From Candidatus Nomurabacteria bacterium (GTDB lineage Bacteria; Patescibacteriota; Minisyncoccia; Phycocordibacterales; UBA9973): a stretch of DNA of 50,290 nt. Made by a program: the position numbers and the translations under genes. Under the pieces are notes generated by a model. It worked only from the letters and a program-made list of their open reading frames with translations. It made no database searches and had not been told where the DNA came from. The stretch is from NCBI GenBank assembly GCA_023267375.1, contig JAHFNJ010000007.1, positions 1-50,290 of the forward strand, read 5' to 3'. This document shows, piece after piece, positions 5,174-45,340 of the stretch; positions within the stretch are counted from its first letter, which is position 1, and each line of letters begins with the position of its first letter.

Positions 5174-6223
5174 TTACTTGAAGAAGAAAAACCCGACGGC
5201 CATGATGGCATACGCCACCAGAAGCTGGACGCCTTCGAGCCAGTTTGATTCGCCGTCTTGGACAACGAGATTCGCAATAAAGACAGAGAAAATAATTGCC
5301 GCGAGTTCAAAGGTGTTGAAGACCAGACTCATTTGCTCTTGGAAAAAGAGACTGATCAAGACAAGAAGTGGCGCAGCGAGCATGGCGATCTGTGTTGCGG
5401 AGCCAATAGAAATCTGCAGTGATAAATCCATACGATTTTTCATTGCCATCGTGATAGCTGACGTGTGTTCAGCCGCATTACCAATGATGGCCACAAAGAC
5501 CACACCGATGAAAAGTTCGGTCCAGCCGAATGCTGCGACGATCGGTTCGATAGACGCAACAAGGATTTCAGAAAGAAATGCAACAAGGACAGTTGAGATA
5601 AAAAGAATAATGACACTTTTTTTGATGCTCCAATTTGGCTGCAGGTGCCCGACCTCTTCGGTGTAGAGGTGTTTGTGAGTAAAAAGCGAGAAAGAAATGC
5701 TCGCAATATAAGCCAGTATCATTAGTACTGAAACTATTATTGAGAGGTGTTCTATAACAACAGGGCCGTGGGTTGGTGCTGTTTGGAAAAATATGGCAGG
5801 GATGACAAGCGCGATGACGGCAAGCAAAAGAGTAGAAGAGCTTGCGAGAATTGCTGTCTTATTGAATGTCTGCTTTTTGTGGCGAGTACCACCAGCAATC
5901 ATTGCTGCTCCTAACACTAAAAGGAGGTTGCCGATAATCGAACCAGTTATAGATGCTTTTACTACTTCAATGAGTCCAGCTTTGAGTGCGAGTACGCCGA
6001 TAATTATCTCTGTTGCGTTGCCAAAGGTTGCATTCAAGAGTCCGCCAACCGCTGGACCAGTGTGTGAAGCGAGTTCTTCGGTGGCGTTACCGATATATTT
6101 TGCGAGCGGTATTATGCCGATTGCGGCGAAGAAGAATACCCATGTCGGGGCAACGTGCATCAATGATGCAATGATTGCGATCGGAACAAAAATAAGAAGC
6201 CCGTTAAGTATTTTTTCAAACAT
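5174..6223 (-). CDS. Ca2+/H+ exchanger (CAX/ChaA family)
   Basis: Alpha-repeats GGLLNATFGNATE and AIIGNAAEH, GESNWLEG, about 10 TM segments. Confidence 0.93.
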   Translation of the reverse strand: MFEKILNGLLIFVPIAIIASLMHVAPTWVFFFAAIGIIPLAKYIGNATEELASHTGPAVGGLLNATFGNATEIIIGVLALKAGLIEVVKASITGSIIGNLLLVLGAAMIAGGTRHKKQTFNKTAILASSSTLLLAVIALVIPAIFFQTAPTHGPVVIEHLSIIVSVLMILAYIASISFSLFTHKHLYTEEVGHLQPNWSIKKSVIILFISTVLVAFLSEILVASIEPIVAAFGWTELFIGVVFVAIIGNAAEHTSAITMAMKNRMDLSLQISIGSATQIAMLAAPLLVLISLFFQEQMSLVFNTFELAAIIFSVFIANLVVQDGESNWLEGVQLLVAYAIMAVGFFFFK

Positions 6224-6243
6224 CGAAGTAGTTGAATTATTTT

Positions 6244-7266
6244 TTAATGAATTAATTTATTTTGATGCATTTCTCCATCAGGATGATCGAATGAAAGGTG
6301 GTCGTATGCTTTTTGGGTGGCAACACGGCCTCGCGGTGTGCGCTCAAGGAGTCCGCGTTGGATTAAGTATGGTTCAACCACTTCTTCGATTGTTGATTCT
6401 TCTTCAGAAGTTGCCGCAGCGATGGTATTTAAACCGACTGGTCCACCACCGAATTTTTCAATAATTACTTTCAGGACATTGCGATCGGATTCAGAAAGAC
6501 CGAGTTCATCGATGCCGAGCAATGAGAGTGCCATGAAAACTGTTTTTTTATCCAAATCTTTTTTATGTACTTGTGCGTAGTCGCGACAGCGTTTCAAGAA
6601 ATAGTTTGCGGTACGGGGAGTGAAGCGGGCGCGCTTCGCTATTTCATCAATTCCACCTTTATCAATATTTATTCCCAAAATTTTTGCACTTCGCCCGATG
6701 ATTTTCATGATTTCCTCTTCGTTATAGAACTCGAGTCGGAAGACGCCGCCCGAGAAACGGGAGCGAAGCGGCGCAGAGAGGAGTGCGATACGTGTTGTGG
6801 CTGCGACGAGCGTAAACGGTGGCAGGTCAAGCTGGATGGTGCGGGCTGACGGGCCTTTGCCGATGATAATATCGAGTACTCCGGATTCCATGGCAGGGTA
6901 GAGCACCTCTTCAACCATTTTGTTGAGTCGATGGATTTCGTCGATGAAAATGATGTCGCCCGGGGAAAGATTGGTGAGAATAGACGCCAAATCGCCGACT
7001 TTTTCGATAGCCGGACCGGAGGTAATCTTGATCTGTCGGCCGGTTTCTTTGGCAATAAGGTGAGCCAGGGTGGTTTTCCCCAGTCCAGGAGGACCATAAA
7101 AGAGGATGTGTTCAGCAGGGTGGTTGCGCTCTTCAGCGGCCTGAAGGAGGATTTTAAGGTTCTGTTTAATGCTTTCTTGGCCGATATACTCTTCCCAGGC
7201 GCCTGGACGCAGGGTTTGGTCTAAAAAGAGCTCATCGGGGATATTTTTTTCTTTTTCTTCCATCAT
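6244..7266 (-). CDS. ruvB: Holliday junction branch migration helicase RuvB
   Basis: LRP...YIGQ, Walker A GPPGLGKTT, Walker B FIDEIHR, GLLERTPRGR. Confidence 0.98.
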   Translation of the reverse strand: MMEEKEKNIPDELFLDQTLRPGAWEEYIGQESIKQNLKILLQAAEERNHPAEHILFYGPPGLGKTTLAHLIAKETGRQIKITSGPAIEKVGDLASILTNLSPGDIIFIDEIHRLNKMVEEVLYPAMESGVLDIIIGKGPSARTIQLDLPPFTLVAATTRIALLSAPLRSRFSGGVFRLEFYNEEEIMKIIGRSAKILGINIDKGGIDEIAKRARFTPRTANYFLKRCRDYAQVHKKDLDKKTVFMALSLLGIDELGLSESDRNVLKVIIEKFGGGPVGLNTIAAATSEEESTIEEVVEPYLIQRGLLERTPRGRVATQKAYDHLSFDHPDGEMHQNKLIH

Positions 7267-31794: not shown

Positions 31795-31960
31795 GGCAGG
31801 AATCTTTCGTTACACGAACAGTATACCTTTTCCATGATTTTGAACAGAAGTTCAAAATCATAAGGAAAAGCTTTTCGATTCCTGACACAAAGTGCGCAGG
31901 CACTTTGTTCCGGGCGCACATATTAAAAAGACCGACATATAGTCGGTTCATTTAAATATG
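31795..31960 (-). repeat. tRNA-Lys-linked mirror element
   Basis: Inverted copy of the tRNA 3' half (31874-31884 plus 31910-31924) split by a 25-nt hairpin (31885-31909); distal sense copy GATTCCTGCC at 31795-31804. Confidence 0.75.
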
Positions 31961-32033
31961 TGCGCCCGGCAGGAATCGAACCTGCGACCATCTCCTTAAA
32001 AGGGAGCTGCTCTACCGACTGAGCTACGGGCGC
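31961..32033 (-). tRNA. tRNA-Lys (anticodon TTT)
   Basis: Cloverleaf: GCGCCCG/CGGGCGC acceptor, anticodon loop CTTTTAA, GGTTCGATTCC T-arm; CCA not encoded. Confidence 0.95.
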
Positions 32034-41033: not shown

Positions 41034-41127
41034 ATATAGTACAGAGCTTATCATTTTTAGGGGTGGTGGCAAAGGGCACGCCCTTGCTAAATCTCAATTT
41101 TAGTGTAGATTAGTAAGGTGTTTAGAA

Positions 41128-41199
41128 GGCTCCGTCGTTCAATGGATAGGACGTAACTTTGCGGAAGTTATGATGCAGGTTCGATTCCTGCCGGAGTCA
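41128..41199 (+). tRNA. tRNA-Arg (anticodon GCG)
   Basis: GGCTCCG/CGGAGTC acceptor, TAACT-TTGCGGA-AGTTA anticodon arm, GCAGG-TTCGATT-CCTGC T-arm; CCA not encoded. Confidence 0.92.
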
Positions 41200-41409
41200 C
41201 TAGTACAAAAATGAGCCGTCTCGAAAGAGGCGGCCATTTTTGTTTAGTGACTCCGAGCGAGCAAACTGCTTTGCTCGCGTGCAGGAATCGAACAGCGGAG
41301 TCATGTTTTGCAAGCTTGCAAAACAGACGAGCTGGTGCCCAGACAAAACTTTTTGACGAAAAAGTTTTAGTCGAGGGCGATAAGCGTACTCGCGGTCCTG
41401 CCGGAGTCA
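41200..41409 (+). repeat. tRNA-Arg-linked mirror element
   Basis: Inverted copy of the tRNA 3' half (41245-41255 plus 41281-41293) split by a 25-nt hairpin; 51-nt core 41294-41344; sense copy TCCTGCCGGAGTCA at 41396-41409. Confidence 0.85.
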
Positions 41410-41418
41410 TCAGGGCTT

Positions 41419-41446
41419 CAAAAAAGCGCCCTCGGGCGCTTTTTTG
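41419..41446. terminator. Bidirectional terminator
   Basis: CAAAAAAGCGCC-ctcg-GGCGCTTTTTTG. Confidence 0.85.
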
Positions 41447-41460
41447 GATTCTATTTAAAT

Positions 41461-41925
41461 TTAAAATCCTAAGAAATCCATGATTCGATGTGACGCAGGT
41501 TCATCCATTTCTCGTTCTTTCATTTTTTTAAGAAGTGAGGTCTGGACCCGTTTCCAGTCAGCATTTCCTAGGGGGAGTGTGACGAGAGGCATAAACATGC
41601 GATCTGTTTCGAGGATAAGCTTGGGTTTGCGGTCTTTTGCAACAATTGCAAAACTTTTTATATGTTTGTAGTCATACGTGTAATGACTCACTTTCACACC
41701 ACGTTCAGTTATTTCAAAAGTCACTATTTGTGGCTTGCGGACACTATAGACAACAAGAAGTGAGACAGCAACCACAATGAAAACAGCAAAAAGAAAATTG
41801 CCGTAGATGATCGAAGCAACAACGGTACAAATTCCGATAATCCCAAGTGCCCAAAACCAGTCGGGCGACTTTGGTCGATCCTCATATTCAAGTGCTTCCC
41901 AGCTGATATGATCTCCAAATTGCAT
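41461..41925 (-). CDS. Membrane protein, DUF5673-like
   Basis: ISWEALEYEDRPKSPDWFW, two TM segments, then a PH-like soluble domain. Confidence 0.65.
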   Translation of the reverse strand: MQFGDHISWEALEYEDRPKSPDWFWALGIIGICTVVASIIYGNFLFAVFIVVAVSLLVVYSVRKPQIVTFEITERGVKVSHYTYDYKHIKSFAIVAKDRKPKLILETDRMFMPLVTLPLGNADWKRVQTSLLKKMKEREMDEPASHRIMDFLGF

Positions 41926-44447: not shown

Positions 44448-44945
44448 TTACTTAGAAAATTTTCGGTAGATTGCGATCAGTTTTTTCTCTAATTGTTGCG
44501 GTGTTTTTTCTTCGTTTCTAAAAGACAGGTGAGGGAAGTCGCCAATACTCTCCCAGTTTTTCTGTATATATGTATCAAGCAGGGTGTGAGTGAAAAAGTG
44601 TCCTTTGCGGTTTTTTATTTGTGATAGATGTTTTGTTTTTGAAGTAGTTACTCGAATGAAAACAATATGTTTTTTAAATTTTTTTAAGAGAAAATTTCTC
44701 GATGTGCTATCTGGTAGGGAGTCAGTAATTGCACTCTCTTTTTTCAGAGACTTTAGATACTTTGCTATTCGGGTGAGTTTTTTGAGTCGGTCTTGTTTAG
44801 TGAATGTTCCTGCGGCAATTTTTTTCTTCTCTGTTGCAAGGAGGAGCGAATCGCCGTTAATATAAAAAACATCAGCCACTTTTGCGAATTTTTGTGCAAT
44901 GTAATCTTTCCCGACACCAGGGTATCCAAAAAACCAGTAGATCAT
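44448..44945 (-). CDS. P-loop kinase, gluconokinase/shikimate-kinase-like
   Basis: GYPGVGK Walker A, INGD, RKGHFF...LLD; start MIYWFFG at 44945. Confidence 0.65.
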   Translation of the reverse strand: MIYWFFGYPGVGKDYIAQKFAKVADVFYINGDSLLLATEKKKIAAGTFTKQDRLKKLTRIAKYLKSLKKESAITDSLPDSTSRNFLLKKFKKHIVFIRVTTSKTKHLSQIKNRKGHFFTHTLLDTYIQKNWESIGDFPHLSFRNEEKTPQQLEKKLIAIYRKFSK

Positions 44946-45065
44946 ACTGACAGGGTAGCATGAAAATGGAGGAATTAAAGAGATTCGCCCGCGACTAAAA
45001 AATCGCCGAAACAGGATGAGATTCTCCCCGTACCGGGGCAGTACAGGTTTCCGAAAAAATAATAC

Positions 45066-45253
45066 AGCGAGATTCGCCCGCGACTCTCGCCTCGTCGTCA
45101 CTCAGCTCGGTCTGGGCACCAGCTCATCTGTTTCGCAAGCTTGCGAAACATGATTCCGCTGTTCGAATCTCACACGCGAAGTGCGCAGGCACTTCGCTCG
45201 CCTCCGCAAACAAAAATGGCCCCGACCAAAGTCGGAGCTCATTTTTGTATTTG
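45066..45253 (-). repeat. tRNA-Ser-linked mirror element
   Basis: Inverted copy of the tRNA 3' half (45161-45173 plus 45199-45210) split by a 25-nt hairpin; 51-nt core 45110-45160; short distal sense copy 45069-45076. Confidence 0.85.
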
Positions 45254-45340
45254 CGGAGGCGGTGAGATTCGAACTCACGGTCCACTTTCATGGACGACAG
45301 TTTTCAAGACTGTTGCCTTAAACCACTCAGCCACACCTCC
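45254..45340 (-). tRNA. tRNA-Ser (anticodon TGA)
   Basis: GGAGGTG/CGCCTCC acceptor, G discriminator, ACAGT-CTTGAAA-ACTGT anticodon arm, long variable arm; CCA not encoded. Confidence 0.95.

Follow-up and report, generated by a model that had tools for sequence, protein, structure and literature searches.

What kind of element occupies the 3′ side of the transfer RNA (tRNA) genes in a bacterium of the candidate phyla radiation (CPR), when one short sequence recurs behind two of them and varies only by whole base pairs? The question is raised by a 50,290-nucleotide (nt) stretch of a Candidatus Nomurabacteria bacterium genome (GenBank assembly GCA_023267375.1, contig JAHFNJ010000007.1, positions 1 to 50,290; 'the window' below), which contains three tRNA genes, Lys-TTT, Arg-GCG and Ser-TGA, each with a mirror element on its 3′ side. 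A preliminary description had pointed to a 51-nt core common to the Arg and Ser elements. We show here that these two elements belong to a new and widespread family of structured, non-coding units of ~200 nt, which sit on the 3′ ends of tRNA and transfer-messenger RNA (tmRNA) genes, on the strand of the tRNA, and have so far been seen only in Patescibacteria/CPR. The arms of the units are modular and matched to the neighbouring tRNA, and the family displays presence and absence, core swapping and arrays.

Two cores that differ by compensatory base pairs

Aligned in tRNA orientation, the Arg core (AGCGGAGTCATGTTTTGCAAGCTTGCAAAACAGACGAGCTGGTGCCCAGAC; 41294-41344, plus strand) and the Ser core (AGCGGAATCATGTTTCGCAAGCTTGCGAAACAGATGAGCTGGTGCCCAGAC; 45160-45110, minus strand) are identical at 47/51 positions, as had been claimed, and the four differences indeed constitute two base-pair swaps, both of which are truly compensatory. 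The first lies in the 3-base-pair (bp) helix GTC/GAC, where G41300/C41328 (G-C) in Arg corresponds to A/T (A-U) in Ser; the second lies in the hairpin TGTTTT..AAAACA, where T41309/A41320 (U-A) in Arg corresponds to C/G (C-G) in Ser. The helices holding both swaps covary among 58 distinct homologues. The 16-mer tail of the core, GAGCTGGTGCCCAGAC, has two exact matches in the window; with up to three mismatches 0.19 matches are expected by chance, and two were reached in none of 100 shuffles. The likeness of the Arg and Ser copies reaches far past the core (127 nt at 75%), and each contains the antisense, or 'mirror', of the T-loop, T-stem and acceptor 3′ strand of its own tRNA. The interval originally singled out (45066-45340) comprises tRNA-Ser and most of its element, a further piece of which extends down to ~44980.

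A family linked to tRNA genes

A scan of the genome collection with CAGNNGAGCTGGTGCCCAGAC returned 26 loci and a metagenome scan 44 more (loci are given L numbers below). Twenty-four of the 26 genome loci are real copies, the matches in Brocadiales coding DNA and in Myxococcota being due to chance. All 24 are labelled as metagenome-assembled genomes (MAGs) of Patescibacteria lineages or as unclassified 'bacterium' MAGs, and the lineages named are Saccharibacteria, Paceibacterota, Taylor-, Nomura-, Yonath- and Lloydbacteria, and Minisyncoccia. The 16-mer scan of viral contigs gave five matches, all of them chance matches in coding DNA. A covariance model of 128 positions (R1), built from 21 copies, produced 72 strong matches in Patescibacteria/CPR genomes and metagenomes, 58 of them distinct, and the family thus numbers at least 58 copies.

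A tRNA or tmRNA gene lies 10-61 nt upstream, on the same strand, in 37-39 non-redundant copies. The ARAGORN labels of the linked genes are Arg, Ser, Gly, Pro, Lys, Gln, His, Tyr, Trp, Val, Asp, Glu, 'Stop' and 'Pyl', in addition to tmRNA, such that one core serves at least 14 ARAGORN-labelled tRNA types and tmRNA, the 'Stop' and 'Pyl' calls being probably mis-registered. These tRNA-Stop(tta) and tRNA-Pyl(cta) calls are located at L019 4637-4712, L063 4569-4642 and L053 637-708; the L019 gene, at least, reads as tRNA-Lys(TTT) with its anticodon out of register (loop CTTTTAA), and is thus probably not a suppressor. Copies for which no upstream gene was called are at contig ends, behind uncalled tRNA-like 3′ ends, or solo (L070/L076, where there is no tRNA upstream). 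The sequences ahead of R1 copies that ARAGORN did not call (L013 21-90, L038 ~800-946, L062 and L075), of which the L013 and L038 examples share ..CTCGCCGCCTGCGGCGGCGAAA.CG.TTCGGACTA.., may represent decayed tRNAs or a different small RNA whose end resembles a T-arm, while the sequence upstream of the L027/L037 copies looks like the 3′ end of an uncalled tmRNA.

The general order of a unit is tRNA 3′ end, terminator-like hairpin, antisense acceptor, stub, antisense T-arm (..TCGAAC), three-way-junction core and sense copy. We refer to the stretch of the tRNA gene that begins at the T-loop and runs slightly beyond the 3′ end as the block; the hairpin that follows it is variable and usually terminator-like. 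It had been envisaged that the core might prove to occur mainly away from tRNAs, as an ordinary repetitive extragenic palindrome (REP); what was found is that copies adjoin tRNAs.

A conserved three-way junction that folds on the tRNA strand

The helices common to the family are the stub; P1 (CAGC/GCUG); P2 (GNC/GNC), separated from P1 by an asymmetric GGA/GA internal loop; and, after an A bulge, P3. Beyond a GU junction, P4 (GCCC/GGGC) encloses P5 (GAC/GUC) and the hairpin hp2, which has a GACG loop and belongs to one of two classes, one with A-U pairs throughout and the other with tandem G.A pairs. In the Arg core P1 (CAGC/GCUG) starts from C41293, P2 is GUC/GAC, P3 is the hairpin 41304-41325, and the 5′ strands of P4 and P5 are GCCC and GAC. 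The nucleotides of the junction are near-perfectly conserved across CPR classes.

Two alignments were used to evaluate this structure: A3, a plain MAFFT alignment checked by hand, and A5, in which 58 sequences were fitted to the covariance model and which therefore leans towards the model. In A3 94.0% of cells are paired and 26/42 pairs show compensatory change, values reached in 0/500 shuffles, and pairing falls to 35-44% when the partners are slid. In A5 93.8% of cells are paired and 32/42 pairs show compensatory change, again reached in 0/500 shuffles, with slid controls at about 40%. The proposal that the structure is under selection is thus strongly supported; far from diverging at random, the further copies diverge in a compensatory way.

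The view of the tail as an invariant recognition or cleavage site requires revision. Its invariance is in part an ascertainment effect, since the tail was the search query; copies found by the covariance model alone contain compensatory P1 changes (CGCC/GGCG and CGGC/GCCG). Nor is the tail, GAGCUGGUGCCCAGAC, a free site. It is the mostly paired hub of the three-way junction, in which GCUG closes P1, GCCC pairs with GGGC and GAC with GUC, leaving GA, GU and one A unpaired.

It could be argued that the copies are functionless, either ordinary REP-like extragenic palindromes or the decaying attachment (att) scars of islands, as they are palindromic and intergenic and have tRNA-3′-end direct repeats like those at attL/attR. 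This explanation is, however, already contradicted by covariation and tRNA linkage: 32/42 pairs covary, the bases of the junction do not vary among 58 distinct copies drawn from different CPR classes, and units of ~200 nt with a three-way junction are tied to tRNAs and not scattered. We therefore consider it highly improbable.

The non-Watson-Crick pairs indicate which strand folds. In A5 G.U pairs outnumber A.C pairs by 48 to 10, and G.A/A.G pairs outnumber C.U pairs by 116 to 4; on A3 the strand asymmetry is 13 versus 6. The folding strand is thus the tRNA-sense strand. A small RNA transcribed from the opposite strand, and ending at a bidirectional terminator beside the tRNA, is consistent with the observation that this strand also folds well (z = -9.3) and would end at an A-tract/T-tract hairpin. 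The wobble asymmetry just described, however, favours the tRNA-sense strand, and the second terminator lies too close to the element to leave space for a promoter. We regard such an RNA as scarcely credible.

Arms matched to the neighbouring tRNA

The mirror of every copy matches its own tRNA. When the Arg unit is folded alone (41243-41412; minimum-free-energy fold, z = -7.9), the mirror pairs with the distal sense copy to give a 9-bp acceptor-like helix, the stub, a 6-bp T-like helix and the junction, with the stub located at the very point from which nucleotides 8-48 would branch off in a tRNA. The predicted fold thus contains the coaxial acceptor/T-stem mimic with a discriminator-type 3′ end that characterizes tRNA-like structures (TLS). 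In the fold of the Ser unit the T-like closing helix alone is kept. Across the family the T part of the distal copy is kept almost always (6.3/7 bases) and the acceptor part is bimodal, being kept in about two thirds of copies. When the tRNA is included, the mirror pairs instead with the tRNA's own 3′ half through the trailer, creating one long palindrome, and where the proximal and distal blocks differ the mirror follows the proximal tRNA copy, trailer included (the window Arg trailer; L031). A retroelement-like primer-binding site, complementary to the mature tRNA 3′ end, was considered and rejected, as the mirror complements the genomic trailer and not CCA.

Arms of this type could belong to an orphan guide RNA for an unlinked RNA-guided enzyme, in which the core would be the scaffold and the tRNA-matching segment after the core and/or the split mirror the guide. 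The enzyme, whether a nuclease, a recombinase or one of modification, would thereby be directed to the tRNA gene or the pre-tRNA. The layout is that of a scaffold and guide with an adjacent motif, in that the core is followed by a locus-specific segment of 14-20 nt right after the T-loop TTCGA; the guide-hairpin-guide mirror and its target together make up a three-way junction similar to that of H/ACA guides; and the system appears programmable, each copy matching its own tRNA. It should be emphasized, however, that in the predicted fold the candidate guide is locked in a perfect duplex with the mirror, and that, in contrast to the situation in bridge RNAs, the two halves of the mirror pair with a single strand. 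Furthermore, no TnpB, IscB, IS110, Cas or Cbf5-like genes are linked, H/ACA and C/D boxes are lacking, and a nuclease aimed at a resident essential tRNA gene would be suicidal. A guide function of this kind is, in our view, improbable.

Core swapping, arrays and a breakpoint inside the block

The third mirror element of the window, behind tRNA-Lys, consists of a terminator, antisense acceptor, CUGC-loop stub, antisense T and sense GATTCCTGCC, with a core of the form AAGCTTTT..hairpin..GGTATACTGTTCGTGTAACGAAAGATTCC. The same type of core lies behind tRNA-Arg(GCG) in L032 and tRNA-Arg(CCT) in L025/L068. The mirror-and-stub architecture is thus common to at least two or three unrelated cores. A sister subfamily, R1b (L065; L043 1605-1729), reads GAAAGACGGAA..UGAGUCGGGGUCG..hp2..GUGACCGAG; it has the tail GAGUCGGGGUCG instead of the usual one and retains the GGA/GA internal loop and the three-way junction. 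L065 contains five matches within 13 kb, demonstrating dense occupancy of tRNA clusters.

Comparison with relatives reveals how the loci differ. In L032, where a neighbour protein is 71% identical, the same tRNA-Arg, trailer, terminator and antisense acceptor are present with a stub and core of the Lys type, and the whole block of tRNA-Arg and element is inverted relative to a DUF5673-like neighbour gene (window 41100-41470 versus L032 6508-6880). The more distant relatives L034 and L036 have tRNA-Arg(GCG) without an element. The tRNA-Ser(TGA) of L032, which shares RuvX/DUF5652 synteny and has an identical 3′ end, also lacks an element; its upstream side is orthologous and its downstream gene unrelated, and it is thus not a clean empty site. 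The tRNA-Ser gene sits at a synteny breakpoint.

Within one genome the stub, P3 tip and terminator flanks are alike across different tRNAs (L006/L018; Arg and Ser in the window, whose common terminator flanks are ACAAAAATGAGC and GGCCATTTTTGTTT). Tandem units are found in L017, L022, L025, L042 and L043, where each block is followed by a hairpin and mirror and the cores differ. In the Arg unit the tRNA-3′-end direct repeat TCCTGCCGGAGTCA, at 41186-41199 and 41396-41409, flanks the element in the manner of tRNA-integrating islands; the two repeats are ~196 nt apart and enclose no open reading frame (ORF), integrase or cargo. At least 14/16 bases of the repeat are kept at most loci, and the repeats extend a variable 0-14 nt past the tRNA end. 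In the 92%-identical genomes L045 (reverse complement 5333-6847) and L049 a 1.5-kb segment encoding a SIR2-like protein (motif ..VIFAGAGIS..) is subject to presence or absence, with its breakpoint inside the distal tRNA-Gln block. This position marks the block as a breakpoint of recombination, and possibly as a place where defence genes can land.

Arrays of this kind raise the possibility that the folded species is single-stranded DNA (ssDNA), the palindrome of block, hairpin and mirror refolding as a double-stranded tRNA gene end for a trans-acting recombinase and the units being the cassettes of an array. The palindrome does run from the tRNA 3′ end to the mirror, trailer included, and the tandem arrays are cassette-like and bounded by a repeated block. 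In addition, the bounds of the core (..TCGAAC on the left, CGA(T/A)T.. on the right) recall the R′′/R′ boxes of attC, with 6/7 matches each in our own comparison, and several loops hold GCGAAGC-type mini-hairpins. Such mini-hairpins are very stable in DNA, and hairpins of DNA can accommodate G.T and sheared G.A pairs. However, there are no integron integrase, Xer-type or HUH genes nearby (window and about 70 loci), and a conserved three-way junction whose unpaired purines are invariant is a hallmark of tertiary folds in RNA and not of attC-like sites. The three window copies, moreover, lie on both strands under a uniformly positive GC skew, and do not, therefore, share one orientation relative to the replication strands. 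We judge an ssDNA site to be quite unlikely.

Parts of the window units

The features of the three units are listed in Table 1.

Table 1. Positions of the tRNA genes and the parts of their elements in the window
Feature	Position	Strand	Remarks
tRNA-Lys(TTT)	31960-32033	-	Third tRNA gene of the window
Third mirror element, behind tRNA-Lys(TTT)	31795..31959	-	Same plan, other core family; no match to covariance model R1
tRNA-Arg(GCG)	41128..41200	+	ARAGORN and Rfam tRNA; part from T-loop to discriminator is the stretch copied in the element
Arg: A-rich trailer, terminator-like hairpin (stem 41215-41234), T-run	41201..41244	+	Loop of the long palindrome from tRNA 3′ end to mirror
Arg: mirror part 1, TAGTGACTCCG	41245..41255	+	Antisense of acceptor 3′ strand, discriminator and 3 trailer bases; 9/9 match
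Arg: stub hairpin, 9 bp, loop CUGC	41257..41278	+	Exactly at acceptor/T-stem junction; 9/9 pairs covary, 99% of cells paired
Arg: mirror part 2, GCAGGAATCGAAC	41281..41293	+	Antisense of T-stem 3′ strand and T-loop; 13/13 complementary
Arg: 51-nt core	41294..41344	+	P1, GGA/GA internal loop, P2, A bulge, P3, GU, 5′ strands of P4/P5
Arg: hp2 hairpin (41345-41369, loop GACG), then GUC (P5′), GA, GGGC (P4′), GA	41345..41380	+	Closes three-way junction
Arg: extra small hairpin, TAAGCGTACTCGCGG	41381..41395	+	One subtype only; common to L016, L019, L022 and L024 in alignment
Arg: sense copy of tRNA 3′ end, TCCTGCCGGAGTCA	41396..41409	+	Direct repeat of 41186-41199, 14/14; pairs with mirror, closing the element
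Arg: second terminator-like hairpin, past element	41417..41448	+	Used jointly with convergent gene 41461-41925
tRNA-Ser(TGA)	45253..45340	-	ARAGORN and Rfam tRNA
Ser: trailer and terminator-like hairpin (45219-45238)	45211..45252	-	Terminator scoring
Ser: mirror part 1, TTTGCGGAGGCG	45199..45210	-	Antisense of acceptor 3′ strand and trailer; 9/9
Ser: stub hairpin, GCGAAGUGCCUGCGCACUUCGC, loop CUGC	45176..45197	-	Sequence and fold
Ser: mirror part 2, GTGAGATTCGAAC	45161..45173	-	Antisense of T-stem 3′ strand and T-loop; 13/13
Ser: 51-nt core	45110..45160	-	47/51 versus Arg; covariance-model score 133 bits
Ser: hp2 (45085-45109, tandem G.A class), then GUCGCGGGCGAAUCUC	45069..45109	-	Sense copy: T-loop/T-stem part kept, acceptor part lost
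Ser: second copy of 17-mer AGTCGCGGGCGAATCTC	44980..44996	-	72 nt beyond first; 17/17

The 3′ end of the Ser element, AGTCGCGGGCGAATCTC, is exactly duplicated, and the 72 nt between the copies hold a CCCCGGTACGGGG hairpin (44980-45085, minus strand); judged from its sequence, this arrangement resembles either a small nested insertion flanked by a target duplication of 17 bp or an incomplete second unit. The R1 copy of L071 (3578-3819, minus strand) contains two insertions, at the P3 tip and the hp2 tip, each with the 18-mer GAAGTACTCTTGTGGTGC and a GAGCGTAGCGA-type mini-hairpin, which appear to be a separate tiny insertion element targeting hairpin loops. ORFs of 58-217 amino acids, called mechanically, overlap the elements (41168-41410, 45102-45278 and 44448-45101, minus strand; 41211-41483, plus strand). 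These are most likely spurious or start further downstream, and the probable start of the gene below the Ser element is ATGATCTACTGG, ~44946. Stretches of exactly 100 N that immediately follow tRNA-Lys and tRNA-Phe (L008 1808-1907; L014 2200-2299) were rejected as masking of interest; they are assembly gaps, probably caused by the repeated or palindromic units.

Searches for partner genes and known families

The window is an ordinary CPR chromosome, with PBP, TyrRS, RuvABC, PolA, RNR and pyrimidine genes, and Pfam scans of 41 window ORFs identified housekeeping genes alone. All-against-all clustering of neighbouring genes, for 24 and then about 70 loci, recovered housekeeping synteny families alone (LepA, SpoU, RuvX, PilM and RuvA). 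The enzyme proposed to spread or use the element thus remains conjecture, none being linked in the window or at these loci. With Rfam 15 at gathering thresholds the three tRNAs, and nothing else in the whole window, pass, and at E<=10 the region 41100-41480 gave sub-threshold chance matches, of which the best was Thr_leader (24.9 bits versus the 55 needed). No published description was found by sequence string or by topic in the literature outside subscription, and a paper reporting 224 motifs does not contain such a motif. A riboswitch or attenuator for the downstream gene was rejected, as downstream genes differ and are often convergent.

Discussion

The explanation that we favour, tentatively and at somewhat below an even chance, is that the unit is a non-autonomous selfish cassette, targeted to tRNA 3′ ends, whose RNA rebuilds a mimic of the tRNA 'top half'. 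Such a cassette would enter by recombination inside the block and would supply a replacement tRNA 3′ end and terminator, so that the tRNA stays functional, while the original 3′ end, once displaced, would remain as the distal direct repeat. Successive entries would generate tandem arrays, and block-to-block recombination would remove or swap units. The transcript would arise by read-through from the tRNA promoter, and its mirror, pairing with a block, would rebuild the coaxial acceptor/T-stem top half of its own tRNA; in this mimic the stub would take the place from which the D and anticodon arms project, and the core that of the T-loop. This tRNA-like handle, together with the conserved junction, may be recognised by a trans-acting factor, for which RNase P, RNase Z, the CCA-adding enzyme and/or an unlinked recombinase are candidates, and the mirror would confer tRNA specificity on the unit. 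In favour of this explanation are the tRNA linkage, fold and strand of the family, the predicted tRNA mimic, and a set of insertion-like traits: the direct repeat of the tRNA 3′ end that starts in the T-loop, the empty orthologous sites, the exchanged stub and core in L032, the tandem arrays, the better match of the mirror to the proximal copy, the likeness of variable stems within a genome, and the indel between L045 and L049.

Several observations weigh against a selfish cassette. A mobile element whose mirror matches each tRNA that it occupies would need a retargeting mechanism that cannot be derived from known chemistry. No integrase, transposase or reverse transcriptase was found among the window ORFs or the recurrent neighbours at about 70 loci. 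No pair of filled and empty sites with identical flanks on both sides was obtained, the downstream genes differing at the empty sites. There is no promoter-like site ahead of the element, and a terminator-like hairpin stands between it and the tRNA, such that expression of the sense strand would depend on read-through. The mismatches between mirror and tRNA show no clear excess of G.U. Finally, the same tRNA loci (tRNA-Ser by RuvX; tRNA-Lys by the SpoU methylase) are occupied in distant lineages, and old syntenic occupancy fits vertical inheritance and a host function equally well.

Such a host function is the basis of the main rival explanation, which we regard as somewhat unlikely. The unit would be a resident gene for a tRNA-like non-coding RNA, co-transcribed with the tRNA and excised by RNase P/RNase Z through the acceptor/T-stem mimic; the three-way junction would be its cargo, for example a protein-binding or catalytic RNA in tRNA metabolism, and the arms would stem from local duplication, kept by selection or gene conversion. 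In addition to the syntenic loci filled in distant lineages, this proposal accommodates the location of every linked copy on the tRNA strand, whose sense strand folds, the near-perfect conservation of junction nucleotides across CPR classes, the tRNA-top-half topology with its stub exactly at the 7/49 junction, and the lack of mobility genes in the window and about 70 loci. Indeed, streamlined CPR genomes seldom keep junk. The host-serving RNA is difficult to reconcile, however, with the many copies per genome, each at a different tRNA (five in 13 kb of L065), or with tandem arrays, orthologous sites that are empty and the exchange of core families at a single locus. Furthermore, about a third of the copies have lost the acceptor portion of their closing helix, the element is preceded by a terminator-like hairpin, and the direct repeats, which run a variable 0-14 nt past the tRNA end, resemble insertion scars.

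A more radical version of the mobile cassette, which we think unlikely, is a programmable RNA element without a protein gene. Here the split mirror would allow the three-way-junction RNA to engage any tRNA gene or precursor at its 3′ end; alone as a ribozyme, or with an unlinked enzyme of host or parasite, this RNA would insert or copy itself there while rebuilding the tRNA end, the top-half mimic serving as its handle. Modular antisense and sense arms around one core at many tRNA types hint at a programmable recognition principle and, if this were true, the units would represent a new class of RNA-guided, tRNA-targeting mobile element.

CPR/Patescibacteria make up a large and poorly understood share of bacterial diversity and have tiny genomes. 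A structured, deeply conserved element present in multiple copies beside many of their tRNA genes is either a participant in tRNA biology that has gone unnoticed or a selfish element of a new type, able to sit harmlessly on essential genes. The units also bear on data quality, as they cause assembly gaps beside tRNAs, spawn spurious ORF calls and mark recombination hotspots. Covariance model R1 offers an immediate means of annotating them.

Comparison with known systems

Currently described systems resemble the CPR unit in part. Integrative elements that target tRNA genes, such as tyrosine-integrase islands and prophages, likewise insert in tRNA or tmRNA genes within the sublocation from the T-loop to the 3′ end, present an intact tRNA followed by the element and a direct repeat, form tandem arrays, and leave both empty and filled orthologous sites. 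In contrast with these, the CPR unit is ~200 nt long, has neither integrase nor cargo, contains an antisense copy of its target and has a covarying fold of RNA type, and one core serves at least 14 ARAGORN-labelled tRNA types and tmRNA. REP sequences and bacterial interspersed mosaic elements (BIMEs) are also intergenic, palindromic and multi-copy, and overlap terminators. These are, however, short palindromes scattered independently of tRNAs, whereas 37-39 non-redundant CPR copies lie behind tRNA or tmRNA genes as units of ~200 nt with a three-way junction and tRNA-specific arms.

Integron attC sites and the folded attP of phage CTX share with the CPR unit compensatory conservation of structure, arrays, and a folded single strand that imitates a double-stranded site. 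The CPR unit differs in its strongly conserved junction sequence, its tRNA specificity, strand evidence that favours RNA, and a context without integron integrase or Xer. ATCGAAC and G(G/C)GCGAT match the attC pattern R′′(RYYYAAC)...R′(GTTRRRY) partly, by eye, and no IntI-like gene was found in the window or at the loci. The omega-RNAs of IS200/IS605 elements, IS110 bridge RNAs and H/ACA guides similarly join a scaffold to locus-specific segments complementary to a target, and the guide-hairpin-guide three-way junction has its counterpart in the mirror. The CPR unit, in contrast, lacks adjacent TnpB, IscB, DEDD recombinase and Cbf5, its mirror halves pair with one strand, its guide is taken up in a duplex with its own complement, and it has direct repeats. 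IS200/IS605 elements (PATE, omega-RNA) have adjacent tnpA/tnpB or constant left and right ends and make no target duplication; no such ORF accompanies the CPR unit, and its left end varies with the tRNA. IS110 bridge RNAs adjoin a DEDD/Tnp recombinase and have two loops whose guides pair with opposite strands of target and donor; the CPR unit has no recombinase gene, and the two halves of its mirror are complementary to a single uninterrupted stretch of one strand. Inspection of the sequence revealed neither H/ACA nor C/D boxes, and the target pairs contiguously across the stub, whereas such guides leave target nucleotides unpaired in a pocket. Group I and group II introns, which take up 200-400 nt or more beyond the guide, are not indicated either, the core being ~110 nt with no Intron_gpI or Intron_gpII match at E<=10.

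A further resemblance is to TLS (viral 3′ TLS, MALAT1 mascRNA) and engineered tRNA scaffolds, which share the coaxial acceptor/T-stem helix with a tRNA-type 3′ strand and discriminator, the side arm where the tRNA body emerges, and the placing of a foreign RNA domain in a tRNA frame. In the CPR unit, however, the T-loop is replaced by the cargo core, there is no elbow of D-loop and T-loop, and the 5′ strand, unlike that of a TLS, is the perfect complement of the neighbouring tRNA's 3′ strand and not a tRNA 5′ strand. The unit thus has the target sublocation and direct repeat of tRNA-integrating islands, the acceptor/T mimic of TLS, the structure-conserved arrays of attC cassettes and the joining of scaffold and specific segment known from guide RNAs. 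As it lacks a defining feature of each of these systems, and neither Rfam nor the literature searched supplied a match, the unit, whose function is putative, is rated as lying outside the known kinds.

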